Of a stretch of 64,000 nt of DNA, positions 2,748 to 41,743 are shown piece after piece. The stretch lies in the NCBI RefSeq assembly GCF_009931435.1, contig NZ_CP043414.1. One strand, given 5' to 3'. Positions within the stretch are counted from its first letter, which is position 1; every line of letters starts with the position of its first letter. The position numbers were made by a program, and so were the translations under genes. Under the pieces are notes generated by a model. That model did not search any database. It had not been told where the DNA came from and saw only the letters and a program-made list of their open reading frames with translations. The DNA comes from Escherichia coli (GTDB lineage Bacteria > Pseudomonadota > Gammaproteobacteria > Enterobacterales > Enterobacteriaceae).

Positions 2748-2925
2748 ATCGCTTTTTTTGTATATACTCGTCATACTTCAAGTTGCATGTGCTGCGTCTG
2801 CGTTCGCTCACCCCAGTCACTTACTTCTGTAAGCTCCTGGGGATTCACTCTCTTGTCGCCTTCCTGCAACTCGAATTATTTAGAGTATAATGCGTGTGAA
2901 ATTTCATACCACAGGCGAAACGATC

Positions 2926-3585
2926 ATGACGCAGGATGAATTGAAAAAAGCAGTAGGATGGGCGGCACTTCAGTATGTTCAGCCCGGCACCATTGTTGGT
3001 GTAGGTACAGGTTCCACCGCCGCACACTTTATTGATGCGCTCGGCACGATGAAAGGCCAGATTGAAGGGGCTGTTTCCAGTTCAGATGCTTCCACAGAAA
3101 AACTGAAAAGCCTGGGCATTCACGTTTTTGATCTCAACGAAGTCGACAGCCTTGGCATCTACGTCGACGGTGCAGATGAAATCAACGGCCACATGCAGAT
3201 GATCAAAGGCGGCGGCGCGGCGCTGACCCGTGAAAAAATCATTGCTTCGGTTGCGGAAAAATTTATCTGTATTGCAGACGCTTCTAAGCAGGTTGATATT
3301 CTGGGCAAATTCCCGCTGCCAGTAGAAGTTATCCCGATGGCACGTAGTGCAGTGGCGCGCCAGCTGGTGAAACTGGGCGGTCGTCCGGAATACCGCCAGG
3401 GCGTGGTGACCGATAACGGCAACGTGATCCTCGACGTCCACGGCATGGAAATCCTTGACCCGATAGCGATGGAAAACGCCATAAATGCGATTCCAGGCGT
3501 GGTGACTGTTGGTCTGTTTGCTAACCGTGGCGCGGACGTTGCGCTGATTGGCACACCTGACGGTGTCAAAACCATTGTGAAATGA
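2926..3585 (+). CDS. rpiA: Ribose-5-phosphate isomerase A
   Basis: Track ORF 2890..3585; recognised RpiA begins [19 protein letters not shown] at internal ATG; 219 aa. Confidence 0.93.
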
Positions 3586-9945: not shown

Positions 9946-11148
9946 ATGCAAAGTGTTGATGTAGCCATTGTTGGCGGCGGCATGGTGGGGCTGGCGGTTG
10001 CCTGCGGCTTACAGGGGAGCGGCTTACGCGTTGCCGTACTGGAGCAGCGCGTACCGGAACCCCTGGCGGCGGATGCACCACCACAACTGCGCGTTTCGGC
10101 TATCAATGCCGCCAGCGAAAAATTACTCACCCGTCTTGGCGTCTGGCAGGAGATTCTCTCCCGCAGAGCCAGTTGCTATCACGGCATGGATGTGTGGGAC
10201 AAAGACAGTTTTGGTCACATTTCGTTTGACGATCAAAGCATGGGCTATAGCCATCTTGGGCATATCGTTGAAAATTCAGTCATTCACTACGCGCTGTGGA
10301 ACAAAGCACAGCAGTCCTCAGATATCAGCCTGTTAGCCCCTGCAGAATTACAGCAGGTCGCCTGGGGAGAGAACGAAACCTTCCTGACGCTGAAAGACGG
10401 CAGCATGTTAACGGCGCGTCTGGTAATTGGCGCAGACGGCGCTAATTCCTGGTTGCGCAACAAAGCCGATATTCCGCTGACTTTCTGGGATTATCAGCAT
10501 CACGCGCTGGTGGCGACCATTCGCACGGAAGAACCGCATGATGCGGTGGCGCGACAGGTTTTCCATGGCGAAGGCATTCTGGCCTTTTTGCCGCTTAGCG
10601 ATCCGCATCTTTGCTCAATTGTCTGGTCACTGTCCCCAGAGGAAGCACAGCGGATGCATCAGGCAGGCGAAGACGAATTTAACCGCGAGTTAAATATCGC
10701 TTTTGATAATCGCCTGGGCTTATGCAAGGTTGAGAGTGAACGTCTGGTGTTCCCGCTGACTGGGCGTTATGCGCGCCAGTTTGCCGCGCACCGTCTGGCG
10801 CTGGTGGGCGACGCCGCGCATACCATTCACCCGTTGGCGGGGCAGGGGGTGAATCTCGGCTTTATGGATGCTGCAGAGCTGATTGCTGAACTGAAACGGT
10901 TGCATCGTCAGGGTAAAGACATCGGGCAGTACATTTACCTGCGTCGCTATGAGCGTAGCCGCAAGCACAGTGCGGCGCTGATGCTGGCAGGTATGCAGGG
11001 ATTCCGCGATCTGTTTTCCGGGGCTAATCCGGCGAAAAAACTGCTGCGTGATATTGGCCTGAAACTGGCCGATACGCTTCCTGGCGTTAAACCACAACTT
11101 ATCCGTCAGGCAATGGGATTAAACGATTTGCCTGAATGGCTGCGCTAA
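9946..11148 (+). CDS. ubiI: 2-octaprenylphenol hydroxylase UbiI (VisC), FAD-dependent monooxygenase
   Basis: Track ORF 400 aa; paralogous to UbiH, GxGxxG motif VAIVGGGMVGLA. Confidence 0.92.
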   Translation: MQSVDVAIVGGGMVGLAVACGLQGSGLRVAVLEQRVPEPLAADAPPQLRVSAINAASEKLLTRLGVWQEILSRRASCYHGMDVWDKDSFGHISFDDQSMGYSHLGHIVENSVIHYALWNKAQQSSDISLLAPAELQQVAWGENETFLTLKDGSMLTARLVIGADGANSWLRNKADIPLTFWDYQHHALVATIRTEEPHDAVARQVFHGEGILAFLPLSDPHLCSIVWSLSPEEAQRMHQAGEDEFNRELNIAFDNRLGLCKVESERLVFPLTGRYARQFAAHRLALVGDAAHTIHPLAGQGVNLGFMDAAELIAELKRLHRQGKDIGQYIYLRRYERSRKHSAALMLAGMQGFRDLFSGANPAKKLLRDIGLKLADTLPGVKPQLIRQAMGLNDLPEWLR

Positions 11149-11191
11149 AAATTTCTCTTCTGCTGTTTATTTGATACCCATCACACTTTCA

Positions 11192-11220
11192 TCTCCCGGT
11201 TTTTTCGCCGGGAGATTTTC
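11192..11220 (+). terminator. Rho-independent terminator after ubiI
   Basis: Stem tctcccgg...ccgggaga followed by TTTT. Confidence 0.6.
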
Positions 11221-11229
11221 CTCATTTGA

Positions 11230-11594
11230 AATAAACTAATTTCACCTCCGTTTTCGCATTATATTTTCTAATGTCACGAATTTTTGATTTAGTGTTTTTT
11301 GACATTTTTTCAGTTCTTAATGTTGTCTTATTCAAATTAACTTTCTCATCTAATTATCTTTGTATAGAGAATGGTCGTTTTTTGGTTTTTTATTCTGTTG
11401 CAATTTTGACGTTTTTTAACCATAAGCTAATGTGATGTTTAATTTTACCTTATGGTTAACAGTCTGTTTCGGTGGTAAGTTCAGGGAAAAGAGAACGATT
11501 GCGTTGGGGACCGGGAGTGGCTCCGATGCTGGGTTTCGTGGTGATAATTTCACCATGAAAAAGTTGTCAGCCCCGCTTATTCAATGAGGACAAG
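11230..11594 (+). promoter_or_regulatory. gcvTHP control region (long AT-rich leader; known multi-regulator region in E. coli)
   Basis: ~365 bp AT-rich non-coding region upstream of gcvT; exact binding sites not resolved by eye. Confidence 0.5.
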
Positions 11595-12689
11595 ATGGCA
11601 CAACAGACTCCTTTGTACGAACAACACACGCTTTGCGGCGCTCGCATGGTGGATTTCCACGGCTGGATGATGCCGCTGCATTACGGTTCGCAAATCGACG
11701 AACATCATGCGGTACGTACCGATGCCGGAATGTTTGATGTGTCACATATGACCATCGTCGATCTTCGCGGCAGTCGCACCCGGGAGTTTCTGCGTTATCT
11801 GCTGGCTAACGATGTGGCGAAGCTCACCAAAAGCGGCAAAGCCCTTTACTCGGGGATGTTGAATGCCTCTGGCGGTGTGATAGATGACCTTATCGTCTAC
11901 TACTTTACTGAAGATTTCTTCCGCCTCGTTGTTAACTCCGCCACCCGCGAAAAAGACCTCTCCTGGATTACCCAACACGCTGAACCTTTCGGCATCGAAA
12001 TTACCGTTCGTGATGACCTCTCCATGATTGCCGTACAAGGGCCGAATGCGCAGGCAAAAGCTGCCACACTGTTTAATGATGCTCAGCGTCAGGCGGTGGA
12101 AGGGATGAAACCCTTCTTTGGCGTGCAGGCGGGCGATCTGTTTATTGCCACCACCGGTTATACCGGTGAAGTGGGCTACGAAATTGCGCTGCCCAATGAA
12201 AAAGCGGCGGATTTCTGGCGTGCGCTGGTGGAAGCGGGCGTTAAGCCCTGCGGTCTGGGCGCTCGTGACACACTGCGTCTGGAAGCGGGTATGAATCTGT
12301 ATAGCCAGGAGATGGACGAAACTATTTCTCCTTTAGCCGCCAACATGGGCTGGACCATCGCCTGGGAACCGACTGATCGTGACTTTATCGGTCGTGAAGC
12401 TCTGGAAGCGCAGCGTGAACATGGCACAGAAAAACTGGTTGGTCTGGTGATGACCGAAAAAGGCGTGCTGCGTAATGAACTGCCGGTACGTTTTACCGAT
12501 GCGCAGGGCAATCAGCATGAAGGCATTATCACCAGCGGTACTTTCTCCCCGACGTTGGGTTACAGCATTGCGCTGGCACGCGTGCCGGAAGGTATTGGCG
12601 AAACGGCGATTGTGCAAATTCGCAACCGTGAAATGCCGGTAAAAGTGACGAAACCTGTTTTTGTGCGTAACGGCAAAGCCGTCGCGTGA
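11595..12689 (+). CDS. gcvT: Glycine cleavage system T protein (aminomethyltransferase)
   Basis: Track ORF 364 aa, recognised GcvT sequence. Confidence 0.95.
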
Positions 12690-12711
12690 TTTACTTTTTG
12701 GAGATTAATTG

Positions 12712-13101
12712 ATGAGCAACGTACCAGCAGAACTGAAATACAGCAAAGAACACGAATGGCTGCGTAAAGAAGCCGACGGCACTTACACTGTTGGCATCAC
12801 TGAGCACGCTCAGGAGCTGTTAGGCGATATGGTGTTTGTTGACCTGCCGGAAGTGGGCGCAACAGTTAGCGCGGGCGATGACTGCGCGGTTGCCGAATCG
12901 GTAAAAGCGGCGTCAGACATTTATGCGCCAGTAAGCGGTGAAATCGTGGCGGTAAACGACGCACTCAGCGATTCCCCGGAACTGGTGAACAGCGAACCGT
13001 ATGCAGGCGGCTGGATCTTTAAAATCAAAGCCAGCGATGAAAGCGAACTGGAATCACTGCTGGATGCGACCGCATACGAAGCATTGTTAGAAGACGAGTA
13101 A
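12712..13101 (+). CDS. gcvH: Glycine cleavage system H protein (lipoyl carrier)
   Basis: Track ORF 12709..13101; recognised start [20 protein letters not shown] at second ATG; 129 aa. Confidence 0.93.
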
Positions 13102-13218
13102 CGGCTTTATTCCTCTTCTGCGGGAGAGGATCGGGGTGAGGATATTTACGCCTCACCCTCACTCTCTTCGCAAGGAGAGAGGTTCACAATTCACTGCACG
13201 TTTCAGGAACCATCGCTC

Positions 13219-16092
13219 ATGACACAGACGTTAAGCCAGCTTGAAAACAGCGGCGCTTTTATTGAACGCCATATCGGACCGGACGCCGCGCAACAGCAAG
13301 AAATGCTGAATGCCGTTGGCGCACAATCGTTAAACGCGCTGACCGGCCAGATTGTGCCGAAAGATATTCAGCTTGCGACCCCGCCGCAGGTTGGCGCACC
13401 GGCGACCGAATACGCCGCGCTGGCGGAACTCAAGGCTATTGCCAGTCGCAATAAACGCTTCACGTCTTACATCGGCATGGGTTACACCGCCGTGCAGTTA
13501 CCGCCGGTTATCCTGCGTAACATGCTGGAAAATCCGGGCTGGTATACCGCGTATACTCCGTATCAACCTGAAGTCTCCCAGGGCCGCCTTGAAGCACTGC
13601 TCAACTTCCAGCAGGTAACGCTGGATTTGACTGGCCTGGATATGGCTTCGGCTTCTCTTCTTGACGAAGCCACCGCTGCCGCCGAAGCAATGGCGATGGC
13701 GAAACGCGTCAGCAAACTGAAAAATGCCAACCGCTTCTTTGTTGCTTCTGACGTGCATCCGCAAACGCTGGATGTGGTACGTACTCGTGCCGAAACCTTT
13801 GGTTTTGAAGTGATTGTCGATGACGCGCAAAAAGTGCTGGATCACCAGGACGTCTTCGGCGTGCTGTTACAGCAGGTCGGCACTACCGGTGAAATTCACG
13901 ACTACACCGCGCTTATCAGCGAACTGAAATCACGCAAAATTGTGGTCAGCGTTGCCGCCGATATTATGGCGCTGGTGCTGTTAACTGCGCCGGGTAAACA
14001 GGGCGCGGATATTGTCTTTGGTTCGGCGCAACGCTTTGGCGTACCGATGGGCTACGGTGGCCCGCACGCGGCATTCTTTGCGGCGAAAGATGAATACAAA
14101 CGCTCAATGCCGGGCCGTATTATTGGTGTATCGAAAGATGCTGCGGGCAATACCGCGCTGCGCATGGCGATGCAGACTCGCGAGCAACATATTCGCCGTG
14201 AGAAAGCGAACTCCAACATTTGTACTTCCCAGGTACTGCTGGCAAACATCGCCAGCCTGTATGCCGTTTATCACGGTCCGGTTGGCCTGAAACGTATCGC
14301 TAACCGCATCCACCGTCTTACTGATATCCTGGCTGCAGGTCTGCAACAAAAAGGTCAGAAGCTGCGCCATGCGCACTATTTCGATACTTTGTGTTTGGAA
14401 GTGGCCGACAAAGCGGGCGTGCTGGCGCGTGCCGAAGCGGCTGAAATCAACCTGCGTAGCGATATTCTGAATGCGGTGGGGATCACCCTTGATGAAACCA
14501 CCACGCGCGAAAACGTGATGCAGCTTTTCAGCGTACTGCTGGGCGATAATCACGGACTGGACATCGACACGCTGGACAAAGACGTGGCTCACGACAGCCG
14601 TTCTATTCAGCCTGCAATGCTGCGCGATGACGAAATGCTCACCCATCCGGTGTTTAATCGCTACCACAGCGAAACCGAAATGATGCGCTATATGCACTCG
14701 CTGGAGCGTAAAGATCTGGCGCTGAATCAGGCGATGATCCCGCTGGGTTCCTGCACCATGAAACTGAACGCCGCCGCCGAGATGATCCCAATCACCTGGC
14801 CGGAATTTGCCGAACTGCACCCGTTCTGCCCGCCGGAACAGGCCGAAGGTTATCAGCAGATGATCGCGCAACTGGCTGACTGGCTGGTGAAACTGACCGG
14901 TTACGACGCCGTCTGTATGCAGCCGAACTCTGGCGCTCAGGGCGAATACGCGGGGCTGCTGGCGATTCGTCATTATCATGAAAGCCGCAACGAAGGACAT
15001 CGCGATATCTGCCTGATCCCGGCTTCTGCGCATGGCACTAACCCGGCTTCCGCGCATATGGCAGGAATGCAGGTGGTGGTTGTGGCGTGTGATAAAAACG
15101 GCAACATCGATCTGACTGACCTGCGCGCGAAAGCGGAGCAGGCGGGCGATAATCTCTCCTGCATTATGGTGACCTATCCTTCCACCCACGGCGTGTACGA
15201 AGAAACGATCCGTGAAGTGTGTGAAATCGTGCATCAGTTCGGCGGTCAGGTTTACCTTGATGGCGCGAACATGAACGCCCAGGTTGGCATCACTTCGCCG
15301 GGCTTTATTGGCGCGGACGTTTCGCACCTTAACCTGCATAAAACTTTCTGCATTCCGCACGGCGGTGGTGGTCCGGGTATGGGACCGATCGGCGTGAAAG
15401 CGCATTTGGCACCGTTTGTTCCGGGTCATAGCGTGGTGCAAATCGAAGGCATGTTAACCCGTCAGGGCGCGGTTTCTGCGGCACCGTTCGGTAGCGCTTC
15501 TATTCTGCCAATTAGCTGGATGTACATCCGCATGATGGGCGCAGAAGGGCTGAAAAAAGCAAGCCAGGTGGCAATCCTCAACGCCAACTATATTGCCAGC
15601 CGCCTGCAGGATGCCTTCCCGGTGCTGTATACCGGTCGCGATGGTCGCGTGGCGCACGAATGTATTCTCGATATTCGCCCGTTGAAAGAAGAAACCGGCA
15701 TCAGCGAGCTGGATATTGCCAAGCGTCTGATCGACTATGGTTTCCACGCGCCGACCATGTCGTTCCCGGTGGCGGGGACGCTGATGGTAGAACCGACTGA
15801 ATCTGAAAGCAAAGTGGAACTGGATCGCTTTATCGACGCGATGCTGGCTATCCGCGCAGAAATTGACCAGGTGAAAGCCGGTGTCTGGCCGCTGGAAGAT
15901 AACCCGCTGGTGAATGCTCCGCACATTCAGAGCGAACTGGTCGCCGAGTGGGCGCATCCGTACAGCCGTGAAGTTGCAGTATTCCCGGCAGGCGTGGCAG
16001 ATAAATACTGGCCGACAGTGAAACGTCTGGATGATGTTTACGGGGACCGTAACCTGTTCTGCTCCTGCGTACCGATTAGCGAATACCAGTAA
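13219..16092 (+). CDS. gcvP: Glycine dehydrogenase (decarboxylating), glycine cleavage P protein
   Basis: Track ORF 957 aa, recognised GcvP sequence, PLP-dependent. Confidence 0.95.
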
Positions 16093-16140
16093 TTTACTGA
16101 TTCGACTATCTTCTAAAGGCGCTTCGGCGCCTTTGACACT

Positions 16141-16286
16141 GATGTCAAACTCAACATTGCCTGATGCACCTCGTTTATCAGGCCTACATAGTCTGTGCAA
16201 TGTATTGAATTTGCACGATCTTGTAGGCTGGATAAGGCGTTCACGCCGCATCCGGCATAATAAAAGCACTTTGTCATCAATAATTT
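16141..16286. repeat. REP/BIME element cluster between gcvP and ygfF
   Basis: Contains gcctgatgcacctcgtttatcaggcctaca and tgtaggctggataaggcgttcacgccgcatccggca, typical REP palindromes. Confidence 0.8.
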
Positions 16287-16287
16287 G

Positions 16288-16315
16288 AAAGGCGCTTCGG
16301 CGCCTTTATTTTTTT
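16288..16315 (+). terminator. Rho-independent terminator (second copy of duplicated hairpin aaaggcgcttcggcgccttt + T-tract)
   Basis: Perfect 8-bp stem with 4-nt loop followed by ATTTTTTT. Confidence 0.7.
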
Positions 16316-16325
16316 AGGAAAACAA

Positions 16326-17069
16326 ATGACTATAGCACTTGTGACCGGTGGCAGTCGCGGCATCGGGCGGGCAACTGCATTACTGTTGGCGCAAGAAGGG
16401 TATACGGTGGCGGTTAATTATCAGCAAAACCTCCACGCGGCGCAGGAAGTGGTGAAGTTAATCACGCAAGCCGGTGGCAAGGCATTCGTGCTTCAGGCGG
16501 ATATCAGCGACGAAAATCAGGTCATCGCAATGTTTACAGCAATCGATCAGCACGATGAACCGCTAGCCGCGCTGGTCAATAACGCCGGGATCTTGTTTAC
16601 CCAGTGCACCGTAGAAAACCTTACCGCAGAGCGAATCAACCGGGTACTTTCCACCAATGTGACGGGATATTTTCTCTGCTGCCGCGAGGCGGTAAAGCGC
16701 ATGGCGCTTAAGAACGGCGGTAATGGCGGTGCTATCGTCAATGTCTCGTCAGTGGCTTCACGGCTGGGATCGCCGGGAGAATACGTTGACTATGCGGCAT
16801 CGAAAGGGGCGATTGATACGTTAACCACAGGGCTGTCACTGGAAGTCGCCGCGCAGGGGATCCGCGTTAACGGCGTGCGGCCAGGGTTTATTTATACCGA
16901 AATGCACGCCAGCGGTGGCGAACCTGGACGCGTTGATCGCGTTAAGTCGAACATCCCCATGCAGCGTGGCGGACAGGCGGAAGAGGTCGCGCAGGCCATC
17001 GTCTGGCTGTTAAGTGATAAAGCCTCTTATGTCACGGGAAGTTTTATCGATTTGGCGGGTGGAAAATAA
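16326..17069 (+). CDS. ygfF: Short-chain dehydrogenase/reductase family oxidoreductase
   Basis: Track ORF 247 aa; SDR Rossmann motif TGGSRGIG and YxxxK catalytic motif. Confidence 0.9.
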   Translation: MTIALVTGGSRGIGRATALLLAQEGYTVAVNYQQNLHAAQEVVKLITQAGGKAFVLQADISDENQVIAMFTAIDQHDEPLAALVNNAGILFTQCTVENLTAERINRVLSTNVTGYFLCCREAVKRMALKNGGNGGAIVNVSSVASRLGSPGEYVDYAASKGAIDTLTTGLSLEVAAQGIRVNGVRPGFIYTEMHASGGEPGRVDRVKSNIPMQRGGQAEEVAQAIVWLLSDKASYVTGSFIDLAGGK

Positions 17070-41693: not shown

Positions 41694-41743
41694 CTTCTTT
41701 CCTTATTTAACCCTCTTCCCTGCGGGAAGAGGGTATTTGTCAT

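Follow-up and report, generated by a model that had tools for sequence, protein, structure and literature searches.

A decayed BoxC pair in the gcvH-gcvP spacer of Escherichia coli coincides with an RNA 3' end mapped in K-12

In a 64,000-nucleotide stretch of Escherichia coli DNA (hereafter, the window), the gcvH-gcvP spacer carries, in its 5' two-thirds (13111-13181), a mutated and decayed inverted pair of BoxC repeats that has become fixed in this species. Its predicted hairpins coincide with a strong RNA 3' end published for K-12. With a probability of roughly 55%, we favor the reading that these REP-like hairpins block 3'-to-5' exonucleases, which would leave a stable gcvTH transcript.

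Structure of the gcvH-gcvP spacer

The original prediction had placed the gcvH-gcvP spacer at 13102-13218, and these limits are exact, as 117 nt separate the gcvH stop codon (TAA, 13099-13101) from the gcvP ATG at 13219. The locus is composed of the following features:

11595-12689, + strand: gcvT, coding sequence
12709-13101, + strand: gcvH; the listed open reading frame starts with TTG at 12709, the likely start is the ATG at 12712, and the stop is TAA at 13099-13101
13102-13110, + strand: unpaired linker of 9 nt from the gcvH stop codon to hairpin H1
13111-13130, + strand: predicted hairpin H1, UCCUCUUC-UGCG-GGAGAGGA, 8 bp, one of them a U.G wobble, loop UGCG, -11.8 kcal/mol
13133-13159, + strand: predicted hairpin H2, GGGGUGAGG / CCUCACCCU, 9 bp with a 9-nt loop, -15.8 kcal/mol
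13162-13181, + strand: predicted hairpin H3, CUCUCUUC-GCAA-GGAGAGAG, 8 bp including one U.G wobble, -10.6 kcal/mol
13163, + strand: position equivalent to the K-12 RNA 3' end, 4 nt past H2 and 2 nt into the 5' arm of H3
13185-13218, + strand: translation-initiation module of gcvP, in which AGGA (13205-13208) lies 10 nt upstream of the ATG; near-invariant across 10 genera
13219-16092, + strand: gcvP, the downstream cistron, with its ATG at 13219 and an mRNA level that we propose is lowered

Folding of 13102-13218 as sense RNA predicts a stable structure of three adjacent hairpins with a minimum free energy of -44.4 kcal/mol, as compared to -30.7 +/- 3.4 kcal/mol for 200 dinucleotide shuffles (z = -4.0; 0/200 as good). 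Both of the inverted repeats that had been pointed out beforehand were recovered (ggggtgagg...cctcaccc at 13133-13158 and ctctcttc-gcaa-ggagagag at 13162-13181), and the description of the spacer as structured holds, except that it named only these two repeats and missed the third hairpin, H1. The motif GGTGAGG-N3-20-CCTCACC has a single occurrence in the 64 kb of the window, where 0.00 would be expected. A long alternative hairpin at 13119-13172, which joins the 3' arm of H1 to the 5' arm of H3 (-29.0 kcal/mol) and would be a candidate RNase III substrate, was rejected as the dominant fold because the three-hairpin state reaches -44.4 kcal/mol. Downstream of the hairpins, the last ~34 nt before the gcvP ATG (CACAATTCACTGCACGTTTCAGGAACCATCGCTC) are near-invariant in ten enterobacterial species regardless of the upstream repeat, and the conservation of 13185-13218 exceeds what a Shine-Dalgarno sequence alone would need. 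A weak stem (-1.6 kcal/mol), in which UUC.CUG pairs with CAG.GAA, lies over the gcvP Shine-Dalgarno sequence.

The K-12 gcvH-gcvP spacer carries zero RefSeq-annotated features. An Rfam scan of 10500-17000 assigned the spacer to no family and found no upstream glycine riboswitch; whalefall-1 was the sole match within the spacer and, with 18.4 bits (E = 0.45), fell short of its gathering score of 37. The promoter scan was without any sigma-70-like site, and an internal gcvP promoter is not indicated. The segment 12700-13700 is 97.2-97.7% identical to E. coli genomes sampled across the ranking, 5424/5425 genomes fall in the 95-99% band, and a single genome, NZ_AP027764.1 (strain 2017-02-2CC), reaches 99.9% identity. 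Given this near-identity to one genome only, the source of the window is probably a divergent, seldom-sequenced Escherichia lineage.

Resemblance to inverted BoxC pairs

BoxC repeats, which are the same elements as PIT and TMECO, have been listed as 23 copies in MG1655, all of them intergenic and five of them inverted pairs (Holder et al. 2015, PMC4666352), and the gcvH-gcvP spacer is absent from this published list. Earlier descriptions of the family are those of Bergler 1992, of Bachellier, and of Hoyne and Maher 2000 and 2002. We built an HMM from the 23 published copies, and its best match in the whole 64-kb window, albeit a weak one, lies within the spacer. The two halves of the pair are:

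13111-13141, + strand: BoxC-like half-element 1, consisting of a hairpin, ATC and GGGGTGAGG; HMM match at 13121-13141, E = 0.051
13151-13181, - strand: BoxC-like half-element 2, inverted; weak HMM match at 13182-13152, E = 4.1

H1 corresponds to a decayed form of the BoxC hairpin CCCTCTCCC-N-GGGAGAGGG, H3 to the decayed BoxC hairpin of half-element 2, and H2 pairs the G-block of half-element 1 with the C-block of half-element 2. The resulting order of hairpin, G-block, spacer, C-block and hairpin is that of the inverted pairs found in K-12 between hrpB and mrcB, where a full-length canonical copy is located, and downstream of gcvP. Furthermore, the spacer aligns column for column, with common flanks, with canonical pairs occupying the same gcvH-gcvP junction in six other genera or lineages, as expected of positional homologs. 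The canonical pairs at this junction, including those of Enterobacter, Pseudocitrobacter and Siccibacter, read CCCTCTCCC..GGGAGAGGG-GGGGTGAGGG...CCCTCACCC-CCCTCTCCC..GGGAGAGGG, and several Enterobacter, Pseudocitrobacter and related genomes carry the near-perfect element CCCTCTCCC-N-GGGAGAGGG-NN-GGGGTGAGGG...CCCTCACCC-TAA-CCCTCTCCC-N-GGGAGAGGG. Used as a query, the consensus of the canonical Enterobacter element hits 19 places in the median E. coli genome. The E. coli spacer itself is too diverged to retrieve other BoxC copies, as a BLAST search of it against 5426 E. coli genomes returned the orthologous locus only; likewise, the strict consensus CCCTCNCCC-N3-6-GGGNGAGGG-N3-GGGNGAGGG yields zero regex matches on both strands of the window. 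It is the inverted-pair layout, the column-for-column alignment and the best HMM match in the window that together lead us to regard the spacer as a decayed BoxC pair, an ancestry that the original prediction had left unrecognized.

The window contains other repeats as well. The gcvP-ygfF intergenic region (16093-16325) holds REP/BIME-type palindromes between exact 20-nt direct duplicates of the gcvP terminator stem (AAAGGCGCTTCGGCGCCTTT, 16115-16134 and 16288-16307), with a T-run only at the second copy. This arrangement is common to only 8/5426 E. coli genomes, and K-12 has a canonical BoxC pair (TMECO 10+11) downstream of gcvP in place of the REPs of the window. Rfam places ES036/CssrF at 16180-16222 on the minus strand of this region (38.4 bits against a gathering score of 37.6), along with a sub-threshold match to naRNA4. 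An isolated perfect hairpin at 41711-41734, CCCTCTTCCC-TGCG-GGAAGAGGG, resembles a BoxC hairpin without an adjoining GGGGTGAGGG, and its HMM match is weak (E about 1.2).

The K-12 RNA 3' end and its possible origins

Term-seq had been suggested as a way to look for RNA ends in the spacer, and published data do give a strong one 4 nt past H2, at MG1655 position 3049097 on the minus strand, where it is classed as 'orphan' (Adams et al. 2021, PMC7815308, supplementary file 1). The file gives each growth condition its own sheet and lists this end three times, with 412,219 reads in LB at OD 0.4 and 171,112 in a second sheet, while the gcvP terminator end at 3046123 was called in one sheet only, with 36,065 reads in LB at OD 0.4 (Adams et al. 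2021, PMC7815308). The spacer end thus has ~11x the reads of the gcvP terminator end and is the strongest among the ends listed in the gcv operon, with the qualification that Term-seq reads do not separate termination from processing and that high counts could reflect a small stable decay remnant instead of a complete gcvTH mRNA. The K-12 RNA ends in ...GCCUCACCCUCACU, and the equivalent RNA of the window would end in ...CCUCACCCUCACU; the 3'-end data are those of K-12, whose spacer differs from that of the window at five aligned positions.

3'-to-5' exonucleases are known to stall at REP elements, and the reading that we favor would extend this behavior to the gcv transcript. The gcvTHP mRNA would be transcribed through the spacer, where three stable hairpins would form. 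Transcripts that are cut or that end farther downstream would be trimmed in the 3'-to-5' direction by PNPase and RNase II, and the exonucleases would stall at H1 and H2, near the point, 4 nt past H2, at which a large share of gcv transcripts end in vivo. The gcvT-gcvH message would be stabilized and the gcvP part would decay, leaving more gcvTH mRNA than gcvP mRNA, and gcvP would be translated independently from its conserved initiation module at 13185-13218. The K-12 data agree with such a barrier in that the in vivo 3' end lies a few nucleotides past a stable hairpin in a transcribed spacer. A scan for U-tracts (>= 5 U in 8 nt) found no terminator-like site on the + strand of 12500-13500, and the tails that follow the hairpins (AUCGGGGU, CACUCUCU and GUUCACAA) likewise include no U-tract. 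Because there is no U-tract and the end is only 4 nt from the stem, a processing or protective hairpin fits best. Similar ends are found at other BoxC or BoxC-like copies of K-12: four Term-seq ends (847200(-), 3781065(+), 3959467(-) and 4231270(-)) lie 4-5 nt past the hairpin, and at these copies G-rich sequence comes next, with no U-tract. A fifth, 632098(+), is the one case of the five in which the offset is ~11 nt. As the 4-5 nt offset is identical at gcv and at these other copies, a shared mechanism of exonuclease stalling can be argued for both. We infer that the end is the work of exonucleases and not of RNA polymerase, with protein ratios changing accordingly.

Several observations speak against a barrier. 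An exonuclease arriving from downstream would first have to breach H3 (-10.6 kcal/mol), or H3 would have to be cut. Both Erwinia and Rosenbergiella have spacers without a hairpin, and the element is therefore dispensable in some lineages. BoxC locations are also reported to show no functional bias (Holder et al. 2015, PMC4666352). As for Rho-dependent termination, a text search of the Rho-region table (Adams 2021, supplementary file 2) found no 30486xx-30491xx coordinate and no gcv gene name, which speaks against it. The only gcv entry in the Salmonella TIER-seq data is for the gcvT 5' UTR, with no gcvH or gcvP entry. The hairpins had originally been proposed as either a partial terminator/attenuator or RNase-processing structures. 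This was correct in substance, with processing as the best-fitting branch; the spacer shows no sign of ligand sensing or leader-peptide attenuation and has no Rfam family. It had further been proposed that the hairpins set gcvP expression relative to gcvTH, with which the 412,219 reads, as compared to 36,065 at the gcvP terminator, are in agreement at the RNA level, whereas a consequence for protein stoichiometry is our inference.

The main rival reading, unlikely in our estimation, is that H2 instead serves as a weak partial intrinsic terminator, at which RNA polymerase would release a fraction of transcripts just past H2 and slight trimming would give the mapped end. H2 is certainly suggestive of one, being a 9-bp GC-rich hairpin followed by the pyrimidine-rich UCACUCUCUUC, and hairpins with U-rich tails occupy the same junction in many lineages outside the core Enterobacteriaceae. 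However, only 3 U are present in the 8 nt past the stem, and the consensus scan of the + strand finds no terminator. Intrinsic terminators usually place the 3' end 7-9 nt from the stem, not at the 4 nt seen here. Moreover, the ends at the other BoxC copies share this offset, and the G-rich tails there are unable to terminate; PIT elements had no terminator activity in earlier reporter assays, according to the summary in Holder 2015 (PMC4666352). From the literature, a partial terminator gains from the lack of a Rho region on record at the spacer (Adams 2021) and from genome-wide studies, in which the site is called a TTS, as stated in the part of Forquet et al. 2022 (PMC9239193) that treats it. 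In Dickeya, Forquet et al. measured a strong internal TTS after gcvH, with a termination probability of 71 +/- 22%, and they cite two E. coli studies, Yan 2018 and Ju 2019, as being in agreement with it. The main text of Yan 2018, at least, does not mention gcv, and the E. coli 'TTS after gcvH' rests on the citation by Forquet et al.

Conservation, other genera and known systems

The spacer is present once per genome, with at least 92.6% identity, in 5425/5426 complete E. coli genomes. Among six E. coli sequences, all substitutions fall in the H2 and H3 loops or in the H2 closing pair. E. coli TW10590 (L085, spacer 23-146) carries a duplication of 6 nt (CCTCAC) within the 3' arm of H2, which resembles replication slippage inside the repeat; no other sampled E. 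coli spacer shows a length change > 1 nt. In the comparison of ten species, 95.7% of cells are paired, and compensatory pairs number 7, as compared to 2.3 +/- 1.1 after shuffling (0/500) and at most 4 with sliding partners as control. A hand count from the pair table gives ~18 cells of the G.U type and ~5 of the A.C type for one-sided changes in H1-H3. One-sided changes are thus mostly G.U or U.G, and for this reason the hairpins are clearly stronger in sense than in antisense RNA, with antisense energies of -6.5, -14.0 and -5.8 kcal/mol for H1, H2 and H3 against sense values of -11.8, -15.8 and -10.6. Taken as sequence comparisons in which the cells of the ten species are phylogenetically non-independent, these results are suggestive of a spacer maintained as an RNA structure. 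They also bear upon the other serious rival, which we consider improbable to about the same degree as partial termination, namely that the spacer is what a selfish or structural DNA repeat has left behind, a neutral relic whose 3' end would be an unavoidable by-product of the hairpin with no selected effect upon gcv. Such a relic would be in keeping with the absence of functional bias in BoxC locations (Holder et al. 2015, PMC4666352), with the absence of the hairpin in some genera, and with a junction that holds BoxC, REP or ERIC-like repeats in different genera, as a permissive landing site might. It is harder to reconcile with a single-copy spacer that is this uniform in E. coli when canonical BoxC loci are reported as unusually unstable or variable; the K-12 BoxC pair downstream of gcvP, for example, is replaced by REPs in the window, unlike the fixed spacer. 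The confinement of E. coli variation to loops and the H2 closing pair, the excess of compensatory changes over controls, the stability bias toward the sense strand and the near-universal presence of a structured spacer all argue against neutrality as well.

We compared the gcvH-gcvP spacers of 80 species. Among 79 gammaproteobacterial loci, 75 have a spacer of at least 50 nt, and together with the window these give 76 spacers, for which the median fold z is -2.65; z is below -2 in 55 of them. In core Enterobacteriaceae, the junction holds BoxC-type, REP/BIME-type or ERIC-like repeats without U-tracts, with REPs in Citrobacter, Lelliottia and Pseudescherichia. In Pantoea, Photorhabdus, Providencia, Dickeya, Yersinia, Shewanella and others, the gcvH stop is often followed closely by a hairpin with a U-rich tail, and a comparable hairpin followed by UUUUG was seen by eye in Serratia (L056), where the scan had not flagged it. 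The short spacers without a hairpin are those of Erwinia (23 nt; L045, L053 and L078) and Rosenbergiella (8 nt; L080). At the other extreme, a Providencia sp. MAG (L068, spacer 2897-3341) has the longest spacer of the set at 445 nt, made up of three tandem ERIC-like palindromic units. In a GTDB species representative from another Escherichia lineage (L003, spacer 2894-3006), the inner part forms a near-perfect 18-bp palindrome (GGGAGAGTTAGGGTGAGG / CCTCACCCTAACTCTCTC), owing to which the predicted fold is one long hairpin rather than three short ones. As read from these sequences, a putative 3'-end-forming structure after gcvH is widespread, though not universal, and the sequences that supply it have been exchanged. 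A broader proposal, that BoxC/PIT/TMECO elements in general act on RNA as REP-like hairpins that both set and protect mRNA 3' ends, and that the gcvH-gcvP slot is selected for any strong hairpin, with BoxC, REP, ERIC-like repeats and intrinsic terminators interchangeable, is one that we offer as tentative and would currently put at somewhat less than even odds.

Much less probable is an effect upon translation, in which H1 might hinder terminating ribosomes or re-initiation and might thereby uncouple gcvP translation or tune GcvH output. H1 begins 9 nt past the gcvH TAA, gcvP has its own conserved initiation region, and a REP within 15 nt of a stop codon reportedly lowers upstream-gene expression via ribosome stalling, a finding ascribed to Liang, Rudd and Deutscher in 2015. 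Nevertheless, this would leave the strong 3' end at H2 unexplained, and species differ in how far the first hairpin lies from the stop codon. The idea least in keeping with our results, and one that we disfavor as very improbable, is that the spacer acts at the DNA level as a triplex or cruciform affecting replication or recombination, as proposed for canonical BoxC/TMECO: half-element 1 does keep 8/9 positions in each of its purine blocks (GGGAGAGG and GGGTGAGG) and the family forms triplexes in vitro, yet the strict TMECO consensus is unmatched in the window, half-element 2 has lost the mirror-repeat purine block and carries GAAGAGAG in place of GGGTGAGG (with mismatched triads, as read from the sequence), in a DNA hairpin the U.G positions would be mismatched as T.G, the locus is stable across E. 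coli, and triplexes are undetected in vivo even for canonical copies.

BoxC repeats, REP-type mRNA stabilization and an internal TTS after gcvH are already known. What appears to be new is the identity of the spacer as a decayed BoxC pair, the connection of this pair to the orphan 3' end, and the hint that BoxC hairpins may be general markers of RNA 3' ends; none of these (the decayed-pair identity, the orphan-end link or a 3'-end role for the family) is stated in the literature that we examined. To our knowledge, no function of BoxC/PIT/TMECO elements has gained acceptance since the 1990s, and discussion of them has been confined to DNA triplexes and instability. Our results suggest that they behave in a REP-like manner on RNA. 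An unannotated E. coli spacer would gain a concrete identity and an 'orphan' Term-seq end an explanation. In the glycine cleavage system, the H and T proteins are expected in excess over the P protein, a need that a structured element after gcvH would fit, and an exonuclease barrier could be a simple route to this excess. The gcvH-gcvP junction, where unrelated hairpin elements have replaced one another, may also offer a convenient natural setting in which to test whether such elements are functionally interchangeable. Current understanding is not overturned by any of this, and the finding is best taken as a useful annotation for an element of an ordinary kind.

Among known systems, the E. coli spacer is closest in layout to the BoxC/TMECO pairs 1+2 and 10+11, with which it shares an intergenic location and the order of hairpin, G-block (GGGGTGAGG), loop, C-block (CCTCACCC) and hairpin. 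Unlike canonical BoxC, its stems are cut to 8 bp with U.G wobbles, its second half has probably lost its triplex potential, and it is stably fixed rather than variable. In mode of action, it would be most similar to REP/BIME elements, as its hairpins lie in a transcribed intercistronic spacer with an RNA 3' end at the hairpin base, and the upstream gcvT-gcvH cistrons would be expected to outlast the downstream gcvP; by sequence, the spacer of the window has no REP motif, unlike those of Citrobacter and Lelliottia. The paradigm for REP as an intercistronic mRNA stabilizer is said to be malE-malF, from the 1987 work of Newbury and Higgins. The partial terminator that follows gcvH within the operon of Dickeya dadantii occupies the same junction and would have the same outcome, in that gcvTH is transcribed both alone and within gcvTHP (Forquet et al. 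2022, PMC9239193). In Dickeya, a canonical GC hairpin and then a U-run directly follow gcvH (loci L055 and L067), whereas in E. coli the corresponding hairpins are without a U-tract.
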